Positions 266-26,085 of a DNA stretch of 64,000 nt are shown here, piece by piece. A model generated the notes under the pieces. The model made no database searches and was not told the origin of the DNA. It saw nothing but the letters and a program-made list of their open reading frames with translations. A program made the translations under genes and the position numbers. The DNA lies in the NCBI GenBank assembly GCA_017881075.1, contig JADGRH010000006.1, forward strand, positions 117,666-181,665, given 5' to 3'. The stretch's first letter is position 1. Every line of letters starts with the position of its first letter. This DNA is from Minisyncoccota bacterium (GTDB lineage: Bacteria; Patescibacteriota; Minisyncoccia; Phycocordibacterales; CAJBRS01).

Positions 266-1495
266 ATGAGTAAAAAAGTCTCTGTGATTGGAGTTTTGGT
301 TCTATGTTTAATTATTTTTTCCTTAACTTTAACTTCTCTCCACTCCCAAACCTACACCTCCGTCCCTCCCACCTTCCAATTCACCCGTAACCTCGGCCTC
401 GGTAACCGCGGTCAGGATGTAGAGAACCTCCAGTGTATATTAGGAGTGACACAGACGACCGGATATTACGGTCCCATCACTGCAGCCGCCGTTCTCCAGT
501 TTCAAAACGCTCACCCTACAGAGGTTCTTACTCCGATAGGTTTAACCGCTGGCACTGGCTACATGGGCTCATCCACCAGAGCTTATCTAAACACACAAAT
601 CTCACAGAATGCTTCATCATCTATCCCAACTTGTCCGACCTATATTCCTCTCACGCCAACAGAACCAACACCTGCACCAATCACATATCAACCTCAGCCA
701 CTACCACAACCTACACAGCCGACACAACCGACCCAAAATACCCAACCACCTCAACAGTTACCTATCACCCCCATCATCAATCCAGATGGTACGGTGAGTT
801 ACCTCAATCCAAATGCAACCTCCACCCTTAATCCTTACGGAACAATTATTAGTCCATACGGAACTACCAACCCTTACAATCCCTACCAGTCAATTCTACC
901 AACTTATAGAAGTCTCAATTCTTCTAATAATTCTCAAGGCTATACAAATTCAAATGCAGCAAATGCAACGGCAGCAATAAATGTTTCGCAGGGTACCGGC
1001 AGTATTGCAGGCTTACCAACAGTCGGCGTCTATAATCCAACAATGAGAAGAAATGAACCGTATGCACACGTTGTCACGGATTCATCCGGGTCTCCTTTTG
1101 TTGGAGATATTGTTACCACTTTCGGAGGTCCAAGAGATCATGACATTGATCCAGTGACCGGTCATGATCTTAACCTCAACCATTTACCCATCTATCCTGC
1201 CTGCACCGCCCACAGTTTAAATCCAAATGCTTATTACATGGCCTTTAGGTGGGATTACACCAAACCACAAACAACTTTCGCTAAACTTCGAAGTTCTTAT
1301 GTTCGTTTTTATAATCCAAAAACCAGATTGTATGCTTTAGCTATGCCGGTGGATTGGGGGCCGTCCCCTGTCTCCCCATCAAAAGCCACCATAGATGTAA
1401 GCGAAGGAACTCTGAAAGCTTTAGGAGCTGAGGGTGGAGACAAGATCTATTTTCAAATGGTGCCCGCCAGCGGTCCTTTGAAGTCCCCGTGTTGA
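266..1495 (+). CDS. secreted protein: N-terminal peptidoglycan-binding (PG_binding_1-like) module, P/T/Q-rich linker, C-terminal RlpA-like double-psi beta-barrel (putative lytic transglycosylase)
   Basis: Signal-peptide-like N-terminus. Motif NLGLGNRGQDVENLQCILGV..GYYGPITAAAVLQFQ. C-terminus VDWGPSPVS.SKATIDVSEGTLKALG resembles the RlpA DPBB tail. Confidence 0.7.
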   Translation: MSKKVSVIGVLVLCLIIFSLTLTSLHSQTYTSVPPTFQFTRNLGLGNRGQDVENLQCILGVTQTTGYYGPITAAAVLQFQNAHPTEVLTPIGLTAGTGYMGSSTRAYLNTQISQNASSSIPTCPTYIPLTPTEPTPAPITYQPQPLPQPTQPTQPTQNTQPPQQLPITPIINPDGTVSYLNPNATSTLNPYGTIISPYGTTNPYNPYQSILPTYRSLNSSNNSQGYTNSNAANATAAINVSQGTGSIAGLPTVGVYNPTMRRNEPYAHVVTDSSGSPFVGDIVTTFGGPRDHDIDPVTGHDLNLNHLPIYPACTAHSLNPNAYYMAFRWDYTKPQTTFAKLRSSYVRFYNPKTRLYALAMPVDWGPSPVSPSKATIDVSEGTLKALGAEGGDKIYFQMVPASGPLKSPC

Positions 1496-1520
1496 ATTTT
1501 TCTGATATAATTAAAATATT

Positions 1521-2849
1521 ATGATGAGAAAATATTTCTTATTTGGTTTTCTAGCCATATTCTTAATTTCCCTCCCTCTCTCTATTAACTCCCAAACCTA
1601 CACCTCCGTCCCCCAAAACTTCCAATTCACCCGCAATCTAGGATTGGGTAACCGCGGTCAAGATGTGGAAAATCTTCAATGTATTCTCGGCGTTACCGAT
1701 CCGACTGGATATTATGGAACTATTACCTCTGCCGCTGTGCTCCAATTCCAAAATACTCACGCCGCCGATATCCTTACACCAGTAGGTTTAACCTCTGGCA
1801 CTGGCTACTTTGGTGCATCCACCAGAACTTACATCAACACCCAAATACAGAATGCTTCCTCATCCTCATCCTCATCCTCATCCTCATCCTCATCCTCATC
1901 CATTGTCCCAAGCTGTCCCACCTATACTCCTCCGACACCACTGCAGCCACAACAACCTCCTACCCCATATACTCCACCACCGCTTCCAACTCAACCGACA
2001 CAACCGACCACCCCACCCGGCACCGTCTCATGCCCGACAGGTTACAGCTGTATTCAGACTCCCAACCAAAACCAGAATCAGGGAGGGTTGCCGGCAGTTC
2101 CTTCCTTTGGACAGAATGGTGGGTTGAATGGGGGAAATCAGTATCAGCAACAACAATGCAATAGTTCGGAGGAAAATTTTTATGCTACGCATGGTGGCCG
2201 GAACGCATTGACGGAAGCGGCTTGGCAGTCTTGTTCTTACAATCAGCAGACTCAAAATACTCCTACCACCAATGCTCCACCACCGCCGGCCTCTAACGCG
2301 CCGGCACAGGATAATTTTTATGCAGTTAATGCGGATTCCTACATACTCGGACAATATAGGAATGGAGGTGATTGCTCACAGAATCAGGGTTACCAAAATT
2401 GTCCCGGACACCCACACTATTACACTACTCACCTTGCTAACCCCACACGTAGATGTGCCATTGACCCCACGATCGCATATTTAGAAAAAGACTTATTGCC
2501 CAAAGCTTTTCCTGGAGTTACTTTTAGCAGTGACTGTAGAACACCCAATGACAATCCTCCGAATCCTCCGGACAATGTGCATTATCCTGGCTTAGCAGTT
2601 GATATTCAGAAAAATGGTGGTCCTATAACAAAGGAAGTGGGTGACAAATTGGTAATTTGGGCTCAGAGGCCGGAAAATTTGATTTTAGGTTTAAAACAAA
2701 TTATTTTTGATGAAAAATCATGGAGATTCGTATCCTATAGCGATGCCTCCGGTCAACATTCTCACTGGATTGGCCCACTACAATTTGGTTGCCAAGGCGA
2801 AGGAGATAGTTGTCACCATGTTCACGTTCATTTTTCTGTAGGCGGTTAA
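1521..2849 (+). CDS. secreted protein: PG-binding module + poly-Ser/Pro linker + C-terminal LAS/M15-like zinc peptidase domain
   Basis: Paralog of 266-1495 with the same N-terminal module. C-terminal HYPGLAVDIQ ... CHHVHVHF matches the H-x(n)-D / H-x-H zinc ligand pattern of VanY/M15 peptidases. Confidence 0.65.
   Translation: MMRKYFLFGFLAIFLISLPLSINSQTYTSVPQNFQFTRNLGLGNRGQDVENLQCILGVTDPTGYYGTITSAAVLQFQNTHAADILTPVGLTSGTGYFGASTRTYINTQIQNASSSSSSSSSSSSSSSIVPSCPTYTPPTPLQPQQPPTPYTPPPLPTQPTQPTTPPGTVSCPTGYSCIQTPNQNQNQGGLPAVPSFGQNGGLNGGNQYQQQQCNSSEENFYATHGGRNALTEAAWQSCSYNQQTQNTPTTNAPPPPASNAPAQDNFYAVNADSYILGQYRNGGDCSQNQGYQNCPGHPHYYTTHLANPTRRCAIDPTIAYLEKDLLPKAFPGVTFSSDCRTPNDNPPNPPDNVHYPGLAVDIQKNGGPITKEVGDKLVIWAQRPENLILGLKQIIFDEKSWRFVSYSDASGQHSHWIGPLQFGCQGEGDSCHHVHVHFSVGG
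1857..1901 (+). repeat. hexanucleotide SSR (TCCTCA) x7.5 encoding poly-Ser inside CDS 1521-2849
   Basis: Direct tandem repeat read from sequence. It is in-frame, so copy-number changes vary linker length and do not shift the frame. Confidence 0.9.
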
Positions 2850-2965
2850 GAAAAGGGAGAAAATAGCAACGGCGATGCCCCCTTGCCACATCACCCACGT
2901 GCATTTCGGCATTAACTAAGCTATAATTTAAGCCGAGGGAAACACTTTCGTTTTTATAATAAACC

Positions 2966-4315
2966 ATGCAAAATAAACACTCTTTGGCCCGATATTTCTC
3001 TCTTCTTTTGATTATTGGTATTTTTTTCTCTCCAATCCCTGTTCTTTATGCACAAAATTCCCCAAATTACGACTATTCTCTGGTTCCAAACACCTACTCT
3101 TTTAATAGAGACTTTGGTAATCCTACCCAAGATCCGGCAGGCCAAAATGACGTTTCCTATTTACAATGTATTCTTGGCATGAGTCCAACCGGCTATTTCG
3201 GCTCGATCACCCAAGCCACCCTAAAAACATTTCAAGAGAATCACGCTGAAGCAGTTCTTACTCCGGTAGGTTTAACCACCGGTACTGGATATTTAGGTAG
3301 CAGTACCAGAGCTTACATCAATGCTCAACTAGTGACCGATGGTTCCACCACGGGTCCTCATTGCAGTGCTCCTACAAACACCACTGATCAATATGGTAAT
3401 CCAATCGGTACTCAATATCCTAACAATACCAACCCGTATCAAACGAATCCAAACAACAATAATCAACCCGCTAACAGTCAAAACTCGCTTCTCCCTCTCC
3501 TTCCCTACTTTATGATGATGTCACAAGGAGGAGGAGCACCACATTTGGTAAATCCAAATCAGCAGAATTCAACAAATAATCAAACTCCGTATTATCCACC
3601 AACAACTACTACCACTACAAATCCTCCAGCCGGTCCAGCTAATCCAGCTAATCCAGTTAATCCAGCTAATCCTCAACAAAATCCTCTAGCAAATAATTAC
3701 GGGAACCCACTATCATGTCAGTCGCCTAATACTTTTAATTACGCAACCGGAAAATGTGTAACTCCAGATGGTTGTAATTTGCCGCAAGTCTTTAATTTCC
3801 CAATGGGAAAGTGTGTAGATCCAAGTGGAACATCTCAGACTCCTCCGACCTCTAGCCAATCTAATCCGGACCACATCTTTGCTGGTCCAGTTGTTTATGA
3901 TTCTATGGATGCTGTTAACCGAGGTAATGAAATTTATTTGGGCAATGATGACAGACCATGTAGGCGCAGTGAGCCACACATGTTTTTAATTATCGTGAAT
4001 AATAGATATATATCTTCCGGTGATGGATCTCTTTACTTATTATTTGATGAAAATCAGACCAAGCTTGGAGGCCAACTAGTTGCTAGTCAAAATAATCTGG
4101 CTCCTGCGGCTGAACTTCTTAAAACAGGCCAGTGTATAACAGGTGACTTTATCCCCAACTCTACTCGTCTCAATGGATACCAAAGTAATTTTTGTCAGGA
4201 TTATACTCGATATGGCCAGCCACGCGTAGGTAGTACCGCTTGGCCGGTGGATGGGATTTTGAATAATATTGAAGTAAGTGCCAACGGAGCATGCTCTACA
4301 AATGTTCCACACTAA
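2966..4315 (+). CDS. secreted protein: PG-binding module + N/Q/P-rich linker with (PAN)n repeats + Cys-containing C-terminal domain of unknown function
   Basis: Third paralog. Motif VSYLQCILGMSPTGYFGSITQATLKTFQENH. TATAAT lies 5 nt before the ATG. Confidence 0.65.
   Translation: MQNKHSLARYFSLLLIIGIFFSPIPVLYAQNSPNYDYSLVPNTYSFNRDFGNPTQDPAGQNDVSYLQCILGMSPTGYFGSITQATLKTFQENHAEAVLTPVGLTTGTGYLGSSTRAYINAQLVTDGSTTGPHCSAPTNTTDQYGNPIGTQYPNNTNPYQTNPNNNNQPANSQNSLLPLLPYFMMMSQGGGAPHLVNPNQQNSTNNQTPYYPPTTTTTTNPPAGPANPANPVNPANPQQNPLANNYGNPLSCQSPNTFNYATGKCVTPDGCNLPQVFNFPMGKCVDPSGTSQTPPTSSQSNPDHIFAGPVVYDSMDAVNRGNEIYLGNDDRPCRRSEPHMFLIIVNNRYISSGDGSLYLLFDENQTKLGGQLVASQNNLAPAAELLKTGQCITGDFIPNSTRLNGYQSNFCQDYTRYGQPRVGSTAWPVDGILNNIEVSANGACSTNVPH
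3635..3670 (+). repeat. 9-nt tandem repeat CCAGCTAAT x4 (encodes PANPANPVNPANP)
   Basis: Read directly from the sequence. It is in-frame. Confidence 0.85.
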
Positions 4316-4345
4316 GATGATTAAAAGCTAATTAAAATTATATTT

Positions 4346-6199
4346 GTGAGAAAAATTATTCTTCAATCTATTAAATTTACCCTAGTTCTATCCATTGTTC
4401 TTTCCAACATCTTCTTTCTTCTCCCCTCCCAAACTCTAGCCGTCGTCGTCAACGGCACGGGCACTCCTCCGCCTACAAATATTCCTCCAGTCGCTGGCAC
4501 CGATCCACAGCAACCATTTAATGTTACTTCTAATCCGCCTGCTAACACTGCGAACCCGGCAATCATCAACTCAGTCATTCCCACCTACACTAATGATCGT
4601 TGGTCCGAGAGCACTCTTCGAAGTCAATTTAATCAATATGGCATTGATGTGAACAATGGTGTTCAACTTTATGGTCTTGGTAATTTTGCTGTCACCGGAG
4701 CAGTATCCCTGAAAAAAACTGTTGACTATTACACTAGCGCAGTGCGAGTAAGTAGCGTTCCTCTTTCAAATCTGACAGTCACAGCCGGAACCGATACTTA
4801 TAATACAGACCAGCCAGTTCTTGATATTACCAGTAATCCAAATCTTGATTATTTCATCAATCATCTCGCCACTTCTCGGGGGAGTAGTAATTACGGCCAG
4901 CTCTATCAATTAGGAGATGATTATTTTTTCCAGAACAATAATTCCTGGCATATAATTTTTGGTCCAAGCAATGGCGCCTTCGTTAAAAACACTATCAATT
5001 TCTTTGGTATCGTTCGAGACAATTTTGCCGTGCCTCACCCTGTCATTACCGATACCAACACTCCTTCTGTCGTTTCTTTTCCTCGCAATCTAGGCGTAGG
5101 TACTAAGGGTCAAGATGTTCACGATCTTCAGCAATTACTTAATGCTGATTCTTACACCACAGTAGCTAGCACAGGTGATGGTTCACCCGGCCACGAAACA
5201 CAATATTTTGGAGTGAAAACCCAAGATGCGGTGAAACGATATCAATATAAAGATAATGAGATCCTTGATGCGGCCGCTATCACCACTCCGACTGGTTTCT
5301 TTGGCACATTTAGCCGAGCGGCCATGGCTTCTTATGGAAATTATCTGAACGCTCTAAAGAACAATCAAAATAGAGCCACTCTAGCCTATCCTACTCCGAC
5401 GAAGCCATTAGAAGATATTCCGCTTAATGGTAATGCTCCTGTCAGCAATCCAAACAATGGTACTCCAAATAATAATCCCGCTCCGGCTACTCCAATTTCT
5501 CTAAACACTACTCCCACCGCCCCGACTTACAATTTCACTAATGGTCCGCCTAATCCATATGCTTCCACTACCGATCCTTACGCTCCTCTTCCGCCAGATC
5601 CGACTTTAAACAATACGCCGGTCTTTGATCAACCAAACTACGTTGGTATTCAAGATCCGAATATTGCTGTCAATCAGACTCCAAATTCTTCTCAACCAAC
5701 CTCACCTTCAAGCATAAATCAATATTTGCCAACGATTTTCTCGGTGATGCAGATGCTTCAAAGAGGAGGATTCTCCTTGCCGGGGCTGGGCGGGGCGCAT
5801 GCTCCGGGGGCGGGCGGGGCGCCGGCGGCTAGTGGGTTACCGGATTATGGCGGTAAGACTTCTTACAACTCTTTCTATTTTAAGAGTGATCCATATAGAC
5901 CTTGTGGCTGTAGCGCTCAAGAAACATATTTGATCATTAATGATAATTCCAGAAGTTCTACCAGGACACCTAGTCCGATTGTTTTGCTTCAAACTCAAGC
6001 AACCTCTTTGATCACTGGCCCCTTAATGATAGGAGCCTGTGCAATAGGTAAATATTTACCACCAACGGCCTGCAGTAGTTGGGTTCTAAGAGGTAATGTT
6101 AACGTTTGTCAGCCAGGTCCGGGAGATGAATTTCCGTGGGCCATACCTTTCGGAACTATAAAAACAGTAGAGTCTCAATCAAATTCTTGTAGCCAGTAA
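4346..6199 (+). CDS. large secreted protein with internal PG-binding module (GTG start)
   Basis: Hydrophobic N-terminus. Internal FPRNLGVGTKGQDVHDLQQLL...FGVKTQDAVKRYQ. P/N/T-rich low-complexity region. Gly-rich segment GLGGAHAPGAGGAPAASG. Confidence 0.6.
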   Translation: MRKIILQSIKFTLVLSIVLSNIFFLLPSQTLAVVVNGTGTPPPTNIPPVAGTDPQQPFNVTSNPPANTANPAIINSVIPTYTNDRWSESTLRSQFNQYGIDVNNGVQLYGLGNFAVTGAVSLKKTVDYYTSAVRVSSVPLSNLTVTAGTDTYNTDQPVLDITSNPNLDYFINHLATSRGSSNYGQLYQLGDDYFFQNNNSWHIIFGPSNGAFVKNTINFFGIVRDNFAVPHPVITDTNTPSVVSFPRNLGVGTKGQDVHDLQQLLNADSYTTVASTGDGSPGHETQYFGVKTQDAVKRYQYKDNEILDAAAITTPTGFFGTFSRAAMASYGNYLNALKNNQNRATLAYPTPTKPLEDIPLNGNAPVSNPNNGTPNNNPAPATPISLNTTPTAPTYNFTNGPPNPYASTTDPYAPLPPDPTLNNTPVFDQPNYVGIQDPNIAVNQTPNSSQPTSPSSINQYLPTIFSVMQMLQRGGFSLPGLGGAHAPGAGGAPAASGLPDYGGKTSYNSFYFKSDPYRPCGCSAQETYLIINDNSRSSTRTPSPIVLLQTQATSLITGPLMIGACAIGKYLPPTACSSWVLRGNVNVCQPGPGDEFPWAIPFGTIKTVESQSNSCSQ

Positions 6200-6988
6200 T
6201 TAAAGGGTTAAGTTTCTCCAATCTTCCAAACTCAAATCTTCCGCTCTGGCTTTTTCGGAGATTTGAGACCGCCGGAATTTCTCTTCCCAGGGAATTTCGG
6301 CGGTTTCTTTTAATTGGCGCAAATTACTGATCAAAAATTTGCGCTTGTGAGCAAAGCCAGCTTTTATGAGCTCAAAAAATTTTTCCTCTTCAATTTTGCT
6401 GTCGTGGAAAAATTTTTTGGAAATGTTCTCGATTAATAAAATAGCAGAATCTACTTTAGGTGCCGGCGCAAAATAGCGCGCCGACACCGTTTTGATGTAT
6501 TTCGGCTTGCCGTAAGCCTTAACACTAAGTGAGAGCAAGCTTTCTTTGCCGTCATTTGCCACAATTCTTTTAGCCACTTCTTTTTGAAGCATTAATACCA
6601 TTCGTTTTGGCTGGATGTCTCCAGAGAGAAACTTGCGTAAAAATATTCCGGTGATGTAATAGGGAATGTTGGCAACAATAGAATAGGTGTTAGGTTTTAG
6701 GTTATAGGTTTTAGGATTGAAGTTGAGGATATCGTCGTGCACCAATTCCAACTTTCTCGTCAATATCTCTTCCTTAAATTTTTCTTCCAGTAGAGGAACT
6801 AGCCGGTCATCCTTCTCTACCACCACCAACCGGGGCGCTGACGCCAATAATTCTTGCGTCAGCGCCCCTTTCCCCGGACCAACTTCCAGCACATTATCGC
6901 CACTTTTAATATCCGCTATCCGAACAATATCGGAAAGAATTTTTTTCGAATGTAGAAAATTTTGCCCCAATGATTTTTTTGCTCTCAT
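6200..6988 (-). CDS. rsmA: 16S rRNA (adenine1518/1519-N6)-dimethyltransferase
   Basis: Motifs LGQNFL, VLEVGPGKGALT and NIPY. Confidence 0.9.
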   Translation of the reverse strand: MRAKKSLGQNFLHSKKILSDIVRIADIKSGDNVLEVGPGKGALTQELLASAPRLVVVEKDDRLVPLLEEKFKEEILTRKLELVHDDILNFNPKTYNLKPNTYSIVANIPYYITGIFLRKFLSGDIQPKRMVLMLQKEVAKRIVANDGKESLLSLSVKAYGKPKYIKTVSARYFAPAPKVDSAILLIENISKKFFHDSKIEEEKFFELIKAGFAHKRKFLISNLRQLKETAEIPWEEKFRRSQISEKARAEDLSLEDWRNLTL

Positions 6989-8916
6989 ATATAAATAGTT
7001 TTTTCACTCAGATTTTCCTCGCTCTCTAGCGATTCTTCATCAAGATCAATAATAAACTCCGAAGGAATGCTAACCTGTTTTGCTCCAAAGATTGTCCGGA
7101 CTGATGCGTATGTAAGATAAAGTTTTATTTTAGCTCGGGTAAGAGCAACATAAAAAAGTCTTCGCTCCTCTTCCTCTTCTTCCCCACTCAATTCTTCCTC
7201 ACTTAATCTTTTGTGTGGAAACAAATCACTTTCAAGCCCACTGACAAACACATAAGAAAATTCCAAACCTTTGGATGCATGAACCGTCATTAATTTAACC
7301 GAGCTGGTTTTTTCTTCCATCTCGTCTTGATCCGACGCCAATGATGCGTCCGCCAATAACTTTTCAATTCCCTCTTCTGGTGGCAAGTAGTCGTACTTAG
7401 TGGCTAGTGTTGCCAACTCTTTAATGTTTTCCAGTCGATTCTCATCTTCTTCCTTCCCTTTTCTATACATTTCTTCCATACCGCTTGCTTTGATGACGTA
7501 TTTAATAGTGTCTGACGGCTTTGATTTCAAGGCCATCATTTGAATTTGTACTAGAAGATTGCGGAAATTTGCCAGCCTCTCCTTCATTGAGGTTGGCAAG
7601 CCCTCTTCTTGCTTTGCGGTAATCTTAAGCAAGGTCAATTTTCCAATGCCACGCGCCGGCACATTAATAACCCGTTTAATGTCCGAAAAACTATCCGGAT
7701 TGAGAGCCGCCCGAAGATATGAAAGCGTATCTTTTACTTCCTTTCTCTCAAAAAATCGAACACCTAAAATTTGATACGGCACCTCTCTCATTAAAAAGGC
7801 TTCTTCCAGTACGCGTGATTGAAAATTAGCCCGATATAGAACAGCGATCTCTTTCGGTGCCACGCCACTCTCAATTAACTCGGCCGATTTCCGAGAAATG
7901 AAATCGGCCTCGTCCGTCTCATCATATGCGGCATACAATCCGATCTTTGCTCCACCTTTTTTATTCGTAAAAAGTTTTTTATCTTTTCGATGAATATTTT
8001 TTTCGATAATAAGATTGGCCGCATTTAAAATTATTTCAGTCGATCGATAATTTTCTTCAAGTAATACTACTTTCGCTTCAGGATAATCTTCCTCAAAACT
8101 TAAAATGTTTCTAATATCCGCCCCACGCCAGCTATAAATATTTTGATCCACATCTCCCACCACACAAATATTTTTTTCTTTCCTAGCTAAGAGTTTAGCA
8201 ATAGTGTATTGAACTCGATTGGTATCCTGATACTCGTCAATGTGAATGTATTTCCAAATGTTTTGATAGTGAGCAAGGATCAAAGGGTTTCGTTTTAGTA
8301 AGTCCGCGCTTTTCAGAAGCAGATCATCAAAATCCAAAGCTCTTTCTCTTTTTAATATCTTTTCGTACTCGGCCCAGACCGACGATACAATCTTGCCGAA
8401 ATAATCCCGACCAGACTCTTCCTCATAATCCCCTTGGCTAATGTTGTCTCCTTTTTGGCGAGAAATGACATGAAGAATCTTTGTCGGCTCAAATTTTTTC
8501 GGATCCAGAGATAAAATCTCCAAACCCTCTTTCACCGCTCGTTTTGAGTCACTGCGATCATAGATGGAAAAGTGTCGTGGCAGATCAAGCAACTTTGAGT
8601 TTTCTTTGATGATGTGAACGCCCAAGGAGTGAAAAGTAGAGACAAAAGGGCGCTCCGATGACGAGATTGGCAGGTTCAATTCCTTGTCATTTTTTAAAAG
8701 TTCGTACACCCGCTCTCTCATTTCCTTGGCTGCTTTGTTGGTGAAGGTGATGGCCAGGATATTTGCCGGCGCTACCCCAGTTTTAATCAAGTGGAGGATA
8801 CGGTGGGTGATAGTCTTAGTCTTCCCCGCTCCGGCGCCGGCCAAAATTAAAAGAGGACCCTCCGTTTGGAGTACAGCGGCCTTTTGCCTTTCATTTAAGC
8901 CATTTAAATCATTCAT
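6985..8916 (-). CDS. pcrA: ATP-dependent DNA helicase UvrD/PcrA family
   Basis: N-terminus LNERQKAAV...GAGAGKTKTITHRI (Walker A). Length 643 aa. Confidence 0.9.
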   Translation of the reverse strand: MNDLNGLNERQKAAVLQTEGPLLILAGAGAGKTKTITHRILHLIKTGVAPANILAITFTNKAAKEMRERVYELLKNDKELNLPISSSERPFVSTFHSLGVHIIKENSKLLDLPRHFSIYDRSDSKRAVKEGLEILSLDPKKFEPTKILHVISRQKGDNISQGDYEEESGRDYFGKIVSSVWAEYEKILKRERALDFDDLLLKSADLLKRNPLILAHYQNIWKYIHIDEYQDTNRVQYTIAKLLARKEKNICVVGDVDQNIYSWRGADIRNILSFEEDYPEAKVVLLEENYRSTEIILNAANLIIEKNIHRKDKKLFTNKKGGAKIGLYAAYDETDEADFISRKSAELIESGVAPKEIAVLYRANFQSRVLEEAFLMREVPYQILGVRFFERKEVKDTLSYLRAALNPDSFSDIKRVINVPARGIGKLTLLKITAKQEEGLPTSMKERLANFRNLLVQIQMMALKSKPSDTIKYVIKASGMEEMYRKGKEEDENRLENIKELATLATKYDYLPPEEGIEKLLADASLASDQDEMEEKTSSVKLMTVHASKGLEFSYVFVSGLESDLFPHKRLSEEELSGEEEEEERRLFYVALTRAKIKLYLTYASVRTIFGAKQVSIPSEFIIDLDEESLESEENLSEKTIYI

Positions 8917-9045: not shown

Positions 9046-10227
9046 TTGTGGAAATGGCAGAATGAGGGATTTATCATTAATCTTAGGCTTATTTTACCAT
9101 ACAGTAGGATTCCAAGCCGGTTTTCGGCCTCTCTAAAGCCCAAAAGTCTTATCACAAGCCTCTTCTATGGAAGGCTCATATTATCATTAGTATTACTAAG
9201 CTTGCCAGGCAATACCCAGGCAAGTGTTTTTTCATTTGTTGGCCATCTATTTGCTGGCACCAACGCCAACGCTAGCGCCTCGGATATAGTCCAAGAATCC
9301 TCCAATTCCCAGAAAATGCCTCTTCTCCAGCTGGCTCTAAACACTAATCCTACCCCATACAATAAAGAACCCGACTTAAATGTGGTGGGAGAGGCACTTC
9401 TCGCTGTAAGCGGTCCTGAAGGGGCGGCTTCCGAATCTTCCTCAGTCGTTCGTCCTTCTAATGATCAGATCAGCCTTTATACTGTCCGAGAGGGCGATAC
9501 TCTTTCAAGTATTGCCAACCTTTTTAATGTTACGGTTAATACCATTCGGTGGGCCAACGATCTGAATTCTGGCTCTACTATCAAAAAAGGACAAGTTTTA
9601 ATTATCTTACCGATCTCTGGAGTTAAATATACGGTTAAGAAGGGGGATACAGTTCAGAGTATAGCTAAGTCATACGGTGGTGATGTTGGTGAAATTAATA
9701 GTTTCAACAATCTCGAGGTAGGCCAAAAACTGTCAGTTGGAGATGAGGTTGTTATTCCCGACGGAGAACTTAGCAGTGGCGTCCAAACTTCTTCCGAAAA
9801 TTCATCAAATGGATCTAAAACTACGGTCACCAAGAGTGGTAAAACTACTGCCGGCCCAACTAGTGGCACCTATATTGATTCAAGCGGCTATTTCCGCCGA
9901 CCACTTGACGGAGGCGTTCGCACTCAAGGTATACATGGACACAATGGTGTTGACTGGGGATCTCCGGTAGGCACCCCGATCCACGCCGCCGCTTCTGGCC
10001 AAGTGATTATCAGTAAAAATAGCGGTTGGAATGGTGGCTATGGCGACTATGTGGTAATCAGCCACCCTAATGGTACGCAGACTCTTTATGCTCACATGAG
10101 CAAGACGGCAGTTTCTGGTGGAGCGAACGTGGAGAAAGGAGAAGTTATCGGCTACATTGGCCTGACCGGCGAAACCACCGGCCCCCATGTCCACTTTGAA
10201 GTTCGAGGAGCCAAAAATCCGTTCTAA
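9046..10227 (+). CDS. secreted LysM (x2) + M23 family peptidase (TTG start, uncertain)
   Basis: Two LysM motifs (YTVREGDTLSSIA, YTVKKGDTVQSIA). M23 motifs HNGVDWG...GYGDYVVISH...GPHVHFEV. A signal-like hydrophobic stretch lies ~40 aa in. Confidence 0.8.
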   Translation: MWKWQNEGFIINLRLILPYSRIPSRFSASLKPKSLITSLFYGRLILSLVLLSLPGNTQASVFSFVGHLFAGTNANASASDIVQESSNSQKMPLLQLALNTNPTPYNKEPDLNVVGEALLAVSGPEGAASESSSVVRPSNDQISLYTVREGDTLSSIANLFNVTVNTIRWANDLNSGSTIKKGQVLIILPISGVKYTVKKGDTVQSIAKSYGGDVGEINSFNNLEVGQKLSVGDEVVIPDGELSSGVQTSSENSSNGSKTTVTKSGKTTAGPTSGTYIDSSGYFRRPLDGGVRTQGIHGHNGVDWGSPVGTPIHAAASGQVIISKNSGWNGGYGDYVVISHPNGTQTLYAHMSKTAVSGGANVEKGEVIGYIGLTGETTGPHVHFEVRGAKNPF

Positions 10228-22757: not shown

Positions 22758-24134
22758 ATGAACGAGAAGTATTCGGAAGCGATCGAGAATTACAAAAAAG
22801 ATCCCTCGCTTTTCTTATCGCATTCGTTGGTGGAAAATGATGAATTGCTTGCCTCTTTTGGCATCTCCATTCCGAACAAAAGTGCCCTACCGGAAGTTTT
22901 TTTGAAATTATATCCCCAAGATTTCATGGTGGAAGAGGTTCTGAAGAACGGGGAAGTCTGTACTGCCGAGTTTAAACCACTAGAGATGCTTAGCACTTCC
23001 GGAAAATCTTTTCATGTCACGTTGGTGAAATGCAATATCGGTACCTTGGAAGCGGCTGAGGAAATTGCCAAACAACTTGCTGTTCCGGTAAACTCTGTCG
23101 GCTACGCCGGCCTGAAAGACAACGACGCCATTACTTCACAGAGAATTTCTTTGACCAGTATTGCAGCGGAAAAGATTTCCGGCATCAGACATCCGTCTTT
23201 CTTTCTGAAGGACATTGAAGAAAACGGATTGATAATAAAAAAGGGCGAATTAAAAGGGAATCGATTCACCATTTTGCTTAGAACCAGAGGGAATGATCCG
23301 GCAGGAAAGAAGGCTTTATTGGACAGCTTAAAATTGATTCAGGAAAATGGATTTTATAATTTTTACTATCTCCAGCGGTTCGGGGCGCCTCGTTTGTTGA
23401 ATCATTACTGCGGGTTTCTGGTACTGCAGGGAAATTACAAAGAAGCCGTCCTTGCCGCTCTTTGTCAAAAAGGGAAAACGGACTTGAATCACATCAATAA
23501 AATCAGAGAAGAAGCCTCGGCCCATTTTGGAGAGTGGAAATATCTTCACGATCTTTTTCTTCCTCATGGAAAAGATCTCTATTATGAAATTCGGCTGGTA
23601 GAGCACCTCGCGAAGCATCCGGAAGATTTTGAAGGAGCTCTTCGCAATGTCCCAGACCTTGTCACCATCTGGGTTTACGCCTCTTCTTCTTGGCTATTCA
23701 ATAATAGACTGTCATCACTGATCAAGAGTTCAAATAACAAAATTCCAAAAACCCTTCCTTTGTTTTTAAGTAGTGATCAATCCAATTGGGAAAGTTATCG
23801 GTCTCTGCTTTCCAAACTTCTGGCCTACCCGCCCAACTTTGGAAATATTTTGAAGGTTTTGCCAGGGCTCGGGCTATGGTCGCGATACGTCAACACCAAA
23901 GCTAAATTTATTTTAAACGGAACTGAGACGATCGATGAGGGGATAGTTCTCTCTTTTACTCTGGGTAGGGGAGAATACGCCACAACTTTATTGGCTCATG
24001 TATGCAACATGATCTCTTATGCTCCTCCGCAGGACATCAGCTTCAATCCGGTAGATAGTATCTCATCCAATGGAAATCCTTTAAAAGAGACCTTTGAGGG
24101 CTTCGCCGAGGCCAAAAAGCCAGTCTTTGCTTGA
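22758..24134 (+). CDS. truD: tRNA pseudouridine synthase TruD/Pus7 family
   Basis: GYAGLKDNDAITSQ (catalytic Asp motif) and FYYLQRFGAPR. Confidence 0.7.
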   Translation: MNEKYSEAIENYKKDPSLFLSHSLVENDELLASFGISIPNKSALPEVFLKLYPQDFMVEEVLKNGEVCTAEFKPLEMLSTSGKSFHVTLVKCNIGTLEAAEEIAKQLAVPVNSVGYAGLKDNDAITSQRISLTSIAAEKISGIRHPSFFLKDIEENGLIIKKGELKGNRFTILLRTRGNDPAGKKALLDSLKLIQENGFYNFYYLQRFGAPRLLNHYCGFLVLQGNYKEAVLAALCQKGKTDLNHINKIREEASAHFGEWKYLHDLFLPHGKDLYYEIRLVEHLAKHPEDFEGALRNVPDLVTIWVYASSSWLFNNRLSSLIKSSNNKIPKTLPLFLSSDQSNWESYRSLLSKLLAYPPNFGNILKVLPGLGLWSRYVNTKAKFILNGTETIDEGIVLSFTLGRGEYATTLLAHVCNMISYAPPQDISFNPVDSISSNGNPLKETFEGFAEAKKPVFA

Positions 24135-24158
24135 CTTTTTCCTTGAATATGGTATACT
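24131..24158 (+). promoter_or_regulatory. near-consensus sigma70-type promoter TTGACT-N16-TGgTATACT (extended -10) overlapping the truD stop
   Basis: Read from the sequence. It drives the GC-rich gene downstream. Confidence 0.55.
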
Positions 24159-24370
24159 AGCGGGCAGAACTCCTAATAGGTTTGTTGAAGAAATTTCTCT
24201 GTATCTTGGCCACTAGCGGCTGAGAGCAGGGGTTCCGGACGGCGCTTCTGTGCCGTCAAATTGCTCCCCGCACTGTGTGCGGTACGACAATGGATATAAC
24301 GAGGGCGGAATAATTCCGTACAACAAAAATTCCTCTAAAATTTCAGAGAATTGATTTAGGACTGAACAAG

Positions 24371-25387
24371 ATGGTAAAACCAAATAGAAATCACAGGCAA
24401 GGCGGTGTTTTCGGAATGCTGATGGCGCGAGTCATCATCACCACCGACCGTATCGCGGGTAACAACTACACCGCGATCGGCGTCGTTCCAACGGAAATCG
24501 TGGACGGCGACACTCATCTCGGCGAACATCGTGACGAGATTATCGGTCAGGACCTTCAGCCCCACCACAGACTGCGTAATGCCGTCGTCGTGGTCGAGCC
24601 AAAAGGCAATCGGTTCGTTCCTCTACTTTCAAAGGATCTGACCGGTAACGACCCTCTCCCCGGAGTCGGGGAAGAGATCATGATGTTGTTCCGGGTCAAT
24701 AGTCCCGAAGGCGATAACCGCAGCATCGTTGAGCGGGCATTTGCCCTGTCGTGGTCGACGGTCGAGGCTTACAGTCGAGGCGGCGAAGAAGCGGCGAAGA
24801 AAAACGAGGACCTGCCCGAGCTCAAGAACGAGATCGATGTCGAATACCGCAGTCTCTGGCGGATGACGTCGGAGTCGGCGCGGATCACCATCGGATGGAT
24901 GACCCCGCAGAAGCTTGCGGACAAGCTGCACTTCCTCAATCGCGGCCTGGTGCCAGCGGACGCCAAGTGGTTCCGTCGGGACCCCGAGATCGGCAAGCAG
25001 CTGGTCGAAGCCGATGAGGACACCCGGAAGGCGATCATCCAACAGATGCAGACCGGCGTGGAATCGAGCGCGCGGCCGAAGGCGCTGACCATGATGCGGA
25101 CGGGCGTCGTCCAAAAGCAGGAACGCCGTTCTCAGCCGAAGCAGCGCACCGAGCGCCTCGGCCCAGTCGAGAAGGAGATCCTGGCAGAGCATCGGAGTGA
25201 TGGGCAACCTCACTCGAGCCTCATCCAGTTCCCTGCGACTGCAGAGCCGAGCGCAACGGCCAAGCGCCCCGCGCCAAAGGCCAAAGCCCCGCGCAAAGGC
25301 GACGGCAAGAAAAGCAAGAAGCGCGACCCTCGGCGCCGTTCGGATCAACGGATCGACGGTGACGAAGATGCGGCGATGATCGCCTAA
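24371..25387 (+). CDS. hypothetical protein encoded in a ~60% GC island, with a basic AKP-rich C-terminal tail
   Basis: AGGA RBS 8 nt upstream. GC3-rich codon usage unlike its neighbours. C-terminus KRPAPKAKAPRKGDGKKSKKRD. Confidence 0.5.
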   Translation: MVKPNRNHRQGGVFGMLMARVIITTDRIAGNNYTAIGVVPTEIVDGDTHLGEHRDEIIGQDLQPHHRLRNAVVVVEPKGNRFVPLLSKDLTGNDPLPGVGEEIMMLFRVNSPEGDNRSIVERAFALSWSTVEAYSRGGEEAAKKNEDLPELKNEIDVEYRSLWRMTSESARITIGWMTPQKLADKLHFLNRGLVPADAKWFRRDPEIGKQLVEADEDTRKAIIQQMQTGVESSARPKALTMMRTGVVQKQERRSQPKQRTERLGPVEKEILAEHRSDGQPHSSLIQFPATAEPSATAKRPAPKAKAPRKGDGKKSKKRDPRRRSDQRIDGDEDAAMIA

Positions 25388-25426
25388 ATAAGAAAAGTCC
25401 ACAGAGGTTCGAATCCAATGTGGCGA

Positions 25427-25460
25427 GCGGTTGAGTTTACGAACTCAGCCGCTTTTTTTT
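25427..25460 (+). terminator. rho-independent terminator GCGGTTGAGTT-tacg-AACTCAGCCGC-T8
   Basis: 11-bp stem with one G-U pair, followed by a T8 tract. Confidence 0.85.
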
Positions 25461-25477
25461 GTTATAATTTTAGGGCA

Positions 25478-25774
25478 ATGTCAAAGAAATTCATAAAAAA
25501 TGTAGAAGATTTTTTCTGCGATCACTGCGGAGAAGTTGTGAAAGGTAATGGTTATACCAATCATTGCCCGAAGTGTCTTTGGAGTAAGCATGTGGATGTG
25601 GATCCGGGGGATAGGGCTAGCGAATGTGGGGGAATGATGGAGCCGATTAGGATTGAAGAGAAGGGCGGGGAGCACTCTATTGTTCATAAGTGTATTAAAT
25701 GTGGTGCGGAGAAGAAGAATAAGATGGCGGTGGGGGATGATTTTGAGAAAGTTATCGATATAACAGGAAATTAA
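25478..25774 (+). CDS. RNHCP-domain zinc-ribbon protein
   Basis: CDHCGE...TNHCPKCLWSKHVD...CGGM...CIKCG. TATAAT lies 9 nt upstream of the ATG, so the mRNA is leaderless. Confidence 0.6.
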   Translation: MSKKFIKNVEDFFCDHCGEVVKGNGYTNHCPKCLWSKHVDVDPGDRASECGGMMEPIRIEEKGGEHSIVHKCIKCGAEKKNKMAVGDDFEKVIDITGN

Positions 25775-25784
25775 TCTCAATTGT

Positions 25785-25885
25785 CTGGTGTGGCCCGCAT
25801 CCTTTCCGTTCGTTTTTCTCCGCAGACTCCGAAGAAACGACCGTAAACTCTGCGGGAACAGCCTGGACCATTGGGTATTGCACAG
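25785..25885 (+). repeat. copy A of a ~105-nt GC-rich intergenic repeat family (shared termini CCTGGTCCCCCGCATCC ... CGGGAACAGCCTGGAC-TTGG-ATTGCA)
   Basis: Aligned by eye with copies at 32845-32947 and 34270-34378. Confidence 0.75.
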
Positions 25886-26085
25886 TTCTCATGTAGTGGT
25901 GCGGCTACTCTAGGTTCTAATTGATAAGCGAAAACCACCAGCATTTTCTTTAATGAGGAAACTGTTTGACGAGTTTACGAATTGCCTGCCGAAGGAGACA
26001 ACGGCTTCGACTCGACTGGAGGCGGTGCAATCGTTAACGAGGAGTTTTCCGAGTTAAAGAAAATGCTGGGGGTTGGAGCGAGAAG

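Follow-up and report, generated by a model that had tools for sequence, protein, structure and literature searches.

What does a bacterium gain from a run of secreted proteins that share one cell wall anchor and differ in almost everything else, and does their position beside a type IV secretion system (T4SS) tell us what they are for? The question is raised by the left end of a 64,000-nucleotide stretch of a Minisyncoccota genome (the window; contig JADGRH010000006.1, positions 117,666 to 181,665), where five genes that we call PgZ, PgA, PgB, PgC, and PgD follow one another on the forward strand. The reading we favor, to which we give about an even chance, is that they form a murein-tethered secreted set allied with the neighboring T4SS, opening the wall locally in a VirB1-like manner and/or acting at the site of contact with a host cell.

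The preliminary description of this DNA, made from the letters alone, had reported an array of four same-strand open reading frames (ORFs). We found all four at exactly the coordinates it gave, but a fifth member, PgZ, is cut by the left edge of the window, so that the window holds the larger part of the array rather than all of it. PgZ is represented by the last 75 amino acids and the stop codon of a 382-amino-acid gene (2–229, +), and is followed by PgA (409 amino acids; 266–1495, +), PgB (442 amino acids; 1521–2849, +), PgC (449 amino acids; 2966–4315, +), and PgD (617 amino acids; 4346–6199, +). The whole PgZ gene was read from a Logan contig that bears the exact PgA sequence and reaches upstream of the window; its stop codon lies 36 nucleotides before PgA, and the translation of 2–229 gives its last 75 residues. 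PgA consists of a signal peptide, the shared module (nucleotides 344–625), a linker rich in Pro, Thr, Gln, and Asn (626–1021), and a head with a predicted RlpA-like double-psi beta-barrel (DPBB; 1022–1492). PgB has a signal peptide, the module (1590–1859), a linker of 16 consecutive serines and Pro-rich sequence (about 1860–2285), and a Cys-rich head that we assign to the M15/LAS zinc peptidases (about 2286–2846). In PgC, a signal peptide and the module (3065–3355) precede a linker rich in Asn, Pro, Gln, and Thr (3356–3871) and a Cys-rich orphan C-domain (3872–4312). PgD is arranged differently, with a signal peptide, an orphan N-domain (4559–5053), a module with a 14-residue insertion (5054–5365), a linker (5366–5830), and a Cys-rich orphan C-domain (5831–6196), and PgZ combines a signal peptide, a canonical PG_binding_1 domain, a Pro-rich linker, and an orphan C-domain. 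The signal-peptide-like segment noted earlier is present in each of PgA to PgD: two or three Lys or Arg residues within the first 10 positions precede a hydrophobic stretch (Kyte–Doolittle maximum over 15 residues of 2.4–3.0), and the rest of each protein reaches at most 1.65, with no further membrane-like segment. These N termini fit Sec signal peptides, and export by that route is our prediction for all four.

Is the shared module a wall-binding domain? It spans about 90 residues, with 22 invariant columns in the alignment, and it had been described as almost identical in three of the proteins. This holds for PgA and PgB (82% identity over 93 residues) but not for PgC, which is only 50% identical; PgD, at 39%, carries it internally (residues about 237–340, the insertion lying after helix 1), as the preliminary description had seen. 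At the DNA level the PgA and PgB modules are only 76% identical over 266 nucleotides, and thus their likeness has been kept by selection and is not the mark of a recent event; recent gene conversion or duplication between the two is ruled out by the same figure. Of the profiles proposed for searching at the outset (PF01471, PF03330, and the M15 families), PF01471 (PG_binding_1) matched all four proteins, the sole Pfam family to do so, and neither PF03330 nor the M15 families matched PgA or PgB themselves. PgD (26.4 bits) and PgZ (25.7 bits, profile positions 3–57 of 57) score above the gathering score of 23, and PgA (18.3 bits), PgB (17.8 bits), and PgC (17.2 bits) score below it, with the central helix alone aligned. 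A hidden Markov model comparison with hhalign nonetheless aligned the module profile to the canonical domains of neighboring paralogues over the entire domain (E 1.1e-4, 63 columns) and placed an 8-residue insertion, H-x-x-E-I/V-L-T-P, before the last helix. Against PDB, the five best matches of the module profile all bear PG_binding_1 and are endolysins or a lytic transglycosylase (AP3 endolysin 5nm7, phiKZ gp144, 4xxt, and two endolysins), at E-values that are marginal (0.01–0.4).

We additionally fetched 46 metagenomic loci by the module's own motifs and scanned 35 module-bearing proteins from them; 34 matched PF01471 (best E 1.9e-94), and these proteins also bear NlpC/P60, M23, Hydrolase_2, Amidase_5, 3D, PKD, or solute-binding domains. 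The assignment to PG_binding_1 therefore stands, and by all of these alignments the module represents one lineage's version of a standard, predicted wall-binding domain that has been shuffled onto many heads. It has in common with the PG_binding_1 domains of endolysins and autolysins (5nm7, phiKZ gp144 3bkh/9xps, 4xxt) the motif series L-x-G-x-x-G-x-x-V-x-x-LQ ... G-x-(F/Y)-G-x-x-T-x-x-A(V/L)-x-x-FQ ... G-x-x-G-x-x-TR, and, as there, a non-catalytic module is joined to wall-active heads (predicted ones here). It departs from the family norm in its insertion, in the scores of PgA to PgC below the gathering score, and in standing at the N terminus with a long spacer behind it.

This kinship with phage enzymes raises the possibility that the array is the lysis cassette of a prophage or mobile element, made up of endolysin genes. 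In PDB, the module's closest relatives are indeed phage endolysins, and the PHROG endolysin family phrog_1493 matches PgA, PgC, PgD, and PgZ. We regard this explanation as essentially excluded and give it hardly any probability: the PHROG matches cover the wall-binding module only, the array has no phage structural, holin, or integrase genes next to it, endolysins do not typically carry signal peptides and long linkers, and the array sits in chromosomal synteny in three genomes with a native GC content (0.43–0.44, the same as in the remainder of the window).

Returning to the proteins as a wall-tethered set, the module is separated from each head by a low-complexity spacer (130–190 residues after the N-terminal modules). 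The linkers rich in Pro, Thr, Gln, Ser, and Asn, with pure repeat tracts, were correctly called in the preliminary description; with Gly included, these residues make up 52–55% of all residues in PgA to PgD. A perfect in-frame (TCCTCA)x7.5 repeat at 1857–1901 encodes the 16 serines of the PgB linker, and in-frame 9-nucleotide tandem repeats lie in the linker-coding regions at 705–736 and 3634–3672. With repeat periods of 6 and 9 nucleotides, slippage could change spacer length while keeping the frame.

What, then, do the heads do? Searches of PgA to PgD by sequence against Pfam, NCBIfam, and PDB gave no matches for the heads, and Pfam DPBB_1 (PF03330) did not match PgA at E ≤ 1. A profile of PgA and its orthologue from a ‘Candidatus Paceibacteria’ metagenome-assembled genome (L002) retrieved nine relatives, all with the domain fused to CHAP, Amidase_2, or GH108. 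An AlphaFold2 (AF2) model of the PgA head made with ten sequences reached a mean predicted local distance difference test score (pLDDT) of 64 and a predicted template modeling score of 0.60, with a core at pLDDT 70–90. The significant Foldseek matches of this model are all DPBB proteins, the best being PA4485 (4avr, E 1.9e-4), followed by kiwellin, expansin EXLX1, p97-N, and designed DPBBs; in BFVD, RlpA-like phage proteins match it. As modeled, then, the PgA head shows a DPBB fold of the RlpA/expansin/kiwellin class, nearest to the RlpA-like PA4485, which agrees with the resemblance to RlpA first suspected. Profile alignment sets PVDWGP...DLSPGA..LG of PgA against NDRGP...DVSRKA..LG of PA4485, so that the Asp of VDWGP lies opposite the Asp of NDRGP. 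The catalytic Asp of Pseudomonas aeruginosa RlpA, D157, is one that we take to lie in such an NDRGP motif. PgA thus has in common with the RlpA/PA4485-type barrel its predicted fold and the motif (V/N)D(W/R)GP ... (I)D(L/V)S ... LG, but it is not an RlpA orthologue in its makeup: no lipobox Cys was found after the signal peptide and no SPOR match in the protein, which instead runs PG_binding_1, linker, DPBB, and its family has FGGP-D and Y-x-A-x-RW-x-Y motifs of its own.

The reach of this family was measured with an exhaustive phmmer search of 1.84 billion representatives, the query being a chimera built solely from the window's own domain sequences. It returned 159 proteins at E ≤ 0.001, of which 150 were listed; about 140 of these match the PgA head, and the rest are the proteins themselves, orthologues, and one relative of PgC. 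Among 98 PgA-head relatives scanned, partner domains were Amidase_2 (9), CHAP (8), T4SS_pilin (7), M15_4 (6), SH3_3 (6), and PG_binding_1 (4), and DPBB_1 was reached by only 4 (best E 4.3e-5). The PgA head belongs to a broad, uncurated DPBB family that Pfam scarcely detects. Its three closest relatives among the matches listed are fusions of a T4SS pilin, a linker, and the domain. The scanned PgA-head relatives (P0025–P0027 and others) include, besides the seven with a pilin, six with an unexpected fusion to an nSTAND1 NTPase and WD40 repeats.

The PgB head is the second candidate enzyme. Alone, it matched nothing in Pfam, NCBIfam, or PDB, and 5.8 billion proteins, searched by word index, included no relative of it. 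We aligned it with three homologues supplied by syntenic loci, four sequences in all, and found invariant H354, G357, A359, and D361 (HxxGxAxD) and H432, H435, and H437 (HxxHVH), as well as an upstream S-x-C-R. H-x-x-G-x-A-x-D together with H-x-H is the signature of the LAS/M15 peptidases, and PgB holds the zinc and catalytic motifs in order (H354-x6-D361, then H435-V-H437). The profile of the four matches PDB entry 9flh (E 5.7e-6) over both motifs; in the sister entry 9fln, a His within HYDHVH is changed to Ala. Peptidase_M15_3 matches two of the four aligned homologues (best E 1.4e-7) and not PgB itself, one orthologue reaching 16.9 bits against a gathering score of 23.2, and VanY and Extensin-like_C match other PgB homologues. 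On these motifs we accept PgB as a divergent, predicted M15-type zinc peptidase, in line with the ligands pointed out in the preliminary description. In common with known M15/LAS peptidases (Peptidase_M15_3, VanY, and the ‘LysM domain-containing protein’ of 9flh), it has H-x6-D and H-x-H, and S-x-C-R takes the position of their S-x-x-R; it differs from them in an additional Cys-rich N-terminal extension and in matching no curated model. A 15-billion-protein collection contains the exact PgA, PgC, and PgD of this contig and lacks the exact PgB sequence; its start was probably called differently in the source records, or the gene was not called.

The remaining heads are orphans. Two C termini, those of PgC and PgD, had been described as lacking a recognizable domain, and indeed neither matches a family, but they are one family rather than two separate novelties: their similarity to each other is weak yet specific (E 2e-4), and with their orthologues they form a family of about 125 residues with four conserved Cys. 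The PgD N-domain (165 residues) is 62–63% identical to its orthologues in L002 and in a JGI metagenome contig (L003), with 86 invariant columns of 168 in the three-sequence alignment. Among the matches listed from the exhaustive search there are only orthologues of these proteins (PgD, P0003, P0006, and P0024; PgC, P0034), and the word-indexed search found six PgD orthologues. Profiles of the PgC/PgD head and the PgD N-domain found nothing in PDB, and the idea that either is a hidden copy of the DPBB or M15 domain was rejected (hhalign probabilities below 3%). Full-length PgD, modeled in AF2 with six orthologues, reached a mean pLDDT of only 34 (about 30 at the module), and the model was set aside; Foldseek with this low-confidence model gave nothing at E ≤ 0.001. 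For the PgZ C-domain, neither Pfam nor PDB nor the compared loci yielded relatives, and the idea that it is a degenerate 3D or DPBB domain found no support (BLASTP against the 3D-domain paralogue of L003, E 1.4; nothing in PDB). The orphan domains are predicted to be extracellular, are probably disulfide-bonded, and, among the matches listed, are confined to this lineage.

These assignments leave room for a different account, in which the array consists mostly of non-enzymatic surface proteins: the module would anchor adhesins or structural proteins, the DPBB would bind glycan, the Cys-rich heads would serve adhesion or recognition, and PgB would be the sole enzyme. The Foldseek matches of PgA include non-catalytic DPBBs (kiwellin, expansin, and p97-N), the PgC/PgD and PgD N-domains show no similarity to hydrolases, and PrgB-like adhesins have not been found for Patescibacteria T4SSs (PMC12102498). 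PgA also lacks, together with its Paceibacteria orthologue, an E-G-L-A-L loop kept by 87–90% of the family, and it is possible that its head is a non-catalytic, expansin-type glycan binder. We nevertheless consider this account very unlikely as a whole. The family to which PgA belongs accompanies catalytic wall hydrolases, and PgA keeps the invariant FGGP-D, Y-x-A-x-RW-x-Y, VDWGP, and D-S of that family, from which we infer that it cuts the wall; the catalytic motif set of PgB is complete.

Does the neighborhood tie a set of wall-active proteins to the T4SS? Upstream of PgZ lie, in order, genes for a VirB4-type ATPase (P-loop_TraG), a TraC-like protein, PrgI, a 23S-rRNA-intervening-sequence protein (IVP), proteins of 249, 799, and 638 amino acids, and a TSP3-repeat protein. 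VirB4, the TraC-like protein, PrgI, and a polytopic membrane protein are encoded 1.2–9 kb upstream of the array, and the TSP3 protein directly adjoins PgZ; the 799-amino-acid protein is judged polytopic by its homologues in L002 and L003, which have multiple hydrophobic spans. Downstream of the array come rsmA, pcrA, and then a LysM-LysM-M23 peptidase. Among 185,579 species genomes, L002 is the sole related locus, and the second relative is L003; across the three loci, PcrA is 79–81% and RsmA 65–68% identical, which places the window in a Patescibacterium of the Paceibacteria class. L002 and L003 carry the T4SS cluster in the same order, and in all three genomes the array lies between this Patescibacteria-type cluster and rsmA-pcrA. 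Its contents differ: the window has Z, A, B, C, and D; L002 has a canonical PG-binding domain with M15, a PG-binding domain with a middle domain and DPBB, then B, C, and D, plus two small lipoprotein-like paralogues on the opposite strand; and L003 has a PG-binding domain with a 3D domain, B, and D. PgB and PgD are thus kept in all three, and the other members are swapped. This conserved position beside the T4SS, the fifth gene, and the orphan N-domain of PgD go beyond what the preliminary description had seen.

Four side observations concern these loci. The two L002 lipoprotein-like genes (7223–7645, −; 9428–9817, −) lie between the hydrolase genes and have lipoboxes ending ...VGC and ...IGC. 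Pfam has no family for them, the window lacks them, and a role as inhibitors or immunity proteins is conceivable. One metagenomic protein (L020 144–1844, +) fuses the PG-binding module to a domain of the 632–638-amino-acid secreted protein of the T4SS side. The IVP gene (four-helix bundle, PF05635) between prgI and the membrane-protein genes is found at L049 2212–2589 (−) and L003 2741–3118 (−). The LysM-LysM-Peptidase_M23 gene occupies the same place in L002 and L003.

That peptidase gene bears on a second alternative, that the array encodes housekeeping autolysins: a glycan cutter like RlpA and a carboxy- or endopeptidase of the M15 type would act with accessory proteins in the cell's own growth and division, and the T4SS would lie beside them by accident. 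RlpA-type DPBB proteins and M15 peptidases are classical wall-turnover enzymes (for RlpA, PMC6895207), the composition of the region is native, the rsmA-pcrA synteny is conserved, and the LysM-M23 peptidase gene follows directly after the array together with rsmA, pcrA, and the gene for PNPase. We consider this unlikely, though less so than a set of mere surface proteins. Membership shifts among close relatives (5, 5+2, and 3 genes, with DPBB or 3D heads swapped), which would be unusual for core division enzymes; the nearest PgA-head relatives among the matches listed are fused to T4SS pilins; and the orphan heads are, again among the matches listed, confined to a handful of genomes. On the reading we favor, the alliance of the array with the T4SS is instead evolutionary and probably functional.

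For Patescibacteria, contact with host cells is a necessity. Their T4SSs are widespread, belong to the monoderm MPF-FATA type, descend from conjugation systems of monoderms, and usually lack a relaxase (PMC12102498). In the one model tested, the saccharimonadial epibiont Ca. Southlakia epibionticum, the T4SS is essential for epibiotic growth, as are peptidase and lysozyme genes beside virB4; canonical VirB1 is rarely linked to virB4 in Patescibacteria, and both VirB1 and adhesins are mostly missing from the clusters (PMC12102498). These genes and the VirB1-type hydrolases of other systems (PrgK, and TraG of pIP501) are like the array in placing wall-active secreted proteins, here predicted ones, beside a monoderm-type T4SS. 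They differ from it in that the array is a multi-gene set with a common binding module rather than one multidomain enzyme, that its functional link to the T4SS is putative, and that none of its members contains an SLT/lysozyme-like, CHAP, or NlpC/P60 Pfam domain of the VirB1, TrsG, or CD419 kind.

The same background can be turned to the interpretation that the preliminary description preferred, a host-directed attack toolkit with which an epibiont binds and digests host peptidoglycan at the attachment site to feed or anchor itself. It is favored by the diversity of these secreted, modular products with their long spacers and by heads that change quickly from one relative to the next; in addition, PgA-type domains occur with endolysin-type catalytic domains, and the Ca. 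Southlakia hydrolases near virB4 set a precedent (PMC12102498). We find it improbable, much as we do housekeeping. Sec signal peptides would deliver the proteins to the cell's own surface only, the sequences hold nothing that separates foreign from self peptidoglycan, and the organism has no known host. At least one cultured Paceibacteria lineage parasitizes archaea that have no murein, which also counts against attack on a host wall.

Under the T4SS-allied reading, the following steps are proposed. Each protein would be exported by Sec, after which the module would tether it to murein and the spacer would let the head reach its target. PgA would cut or loosen glycan strands, and PgB would cut peptide stems or cross-links; together they would open the wall locally, most probably in the service of the T4SS or pilus apparatus at the site of host contact, as VirB1 does. 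The orphan heads would probably add binding or further wall-active functions, and the substrate may be the cell's own sacculus or that of the host.

Several points weigh against this reading. The activities of PgA and PgB are predictions for heads that have no Pfam match, assigned from profiles of few homologues and a medium-confidence model, and DPBB proteins such as expansin and kiwellin may be non-catalytic binders, a concern that the missing E-G-L-A-L loop sharpens. The heads of PgZ and PgC/PgD and the PgD N-domain have no assignable function. The tie to the T4SS is drawn from gene adjacency, seen in no more than three related genomes, and the other 43 module-bearing metagenomic loci, most of them on short contigs, have no VirB4 neighbor. 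Finally, the LysM-LysM-Peptidase_M23 gene (9046–10227, +) lies 3 kb downstream, and the region could be a wall-maintenance neighborhood.

One anchor module with many heads and clustered genes is an organization already known, as are wall hydrolases linked to T4SSs. The Clostridioides CWB2 ‘Cwp’ proteins and the pneumococcal choline-binding proteins likewise combine one anchor module with many heads, clustered genes, and Sec signals, and the array differs from them in using another anchor, in a Patescibacterium, beside a T4SS, and with orphan heads. The novelty lies in this specific combination being found in Paceibacteria, in an uncurated DPBB subfamily that includes pilin fusions, and in three orphan domains. 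A variable array in a conserved place beside the T4SS is a concrete candidate for the wall-opening and adhesin functions missing from these clusters, and the PgA-type DPBB family, which also occurs as pilin fusions, is a candidate wall-opening enzyme. A bolder extension, which we think doubtful, would make the orphan domains unseen folds that form a lineage-specific accessory layer of the T4SS (wall-anchored adhesins or new wall enzymes at the interface between epibiont and host) and the PgA-type DPBB the missing equivalent of VirB1. In practical terms the gain is small. It amounts to two predicted enzymes, the three orphan domains, and an uncurated DPBB subfamily that, with at least 140 cluster representatives, merits its own Pfam entry.

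How are the genes read? A −10 box within 10 nucleotides of the start codon had been reported for all four. The exact hexamer TATAAT indeed precedes PgA (251–256, +; 9 nucleotides before the ATG, without a Shine–Dalgarno motif), PgB (1506–1511, +; 9 nucleotides before the ATG), and PgC (2955–2960, +; 5 nucleotides before the ATG), but PgD has only weaker forms, TAAAAT or TATATT, and the trait is not special to the array. Across the window, a −10-like hexamer ends at most 14 nucleotides before the start codon in 21 of 58 long ORFs, often as TATAAT followed by 6 nucleotides and ATG. A Shine–Dalgarno-like motif occurs in only 4 of the 58, and none was found upstream of the PgA to PgD starts. A −10 box just before each start codon suggests leaderless mRNA; the PgA transcript is probably leaderless, and the organism seems to use such mRNAs generally, the start-proximal −10 box being, it seems, a genome-wide trait.

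Two hairpins followed by T-runs lie on the same strand. A short, terminator-like one (2934–2950, +) stands between PgB and PgC, and the −10 box of PgC comes next. The other, with an 18-bp stem (6265–6307, +), sits within the 3'-terminal part of convergent rsmA and is probably the terminator of the PgD transcript. The rsmA ORF (6200–6988, −) leaves no intergenic space, its stop codon abutting that of PgD. Elsewhere in the window, no Pfam family matched an ORF at 24371–25387 (338 amino acids) and no Rfam family was found in 24001–26000; GC content in this interval is 52.6%, against about 43% elsewhere, and the ORF overlaps a 257-amino-acid antisense ORF.

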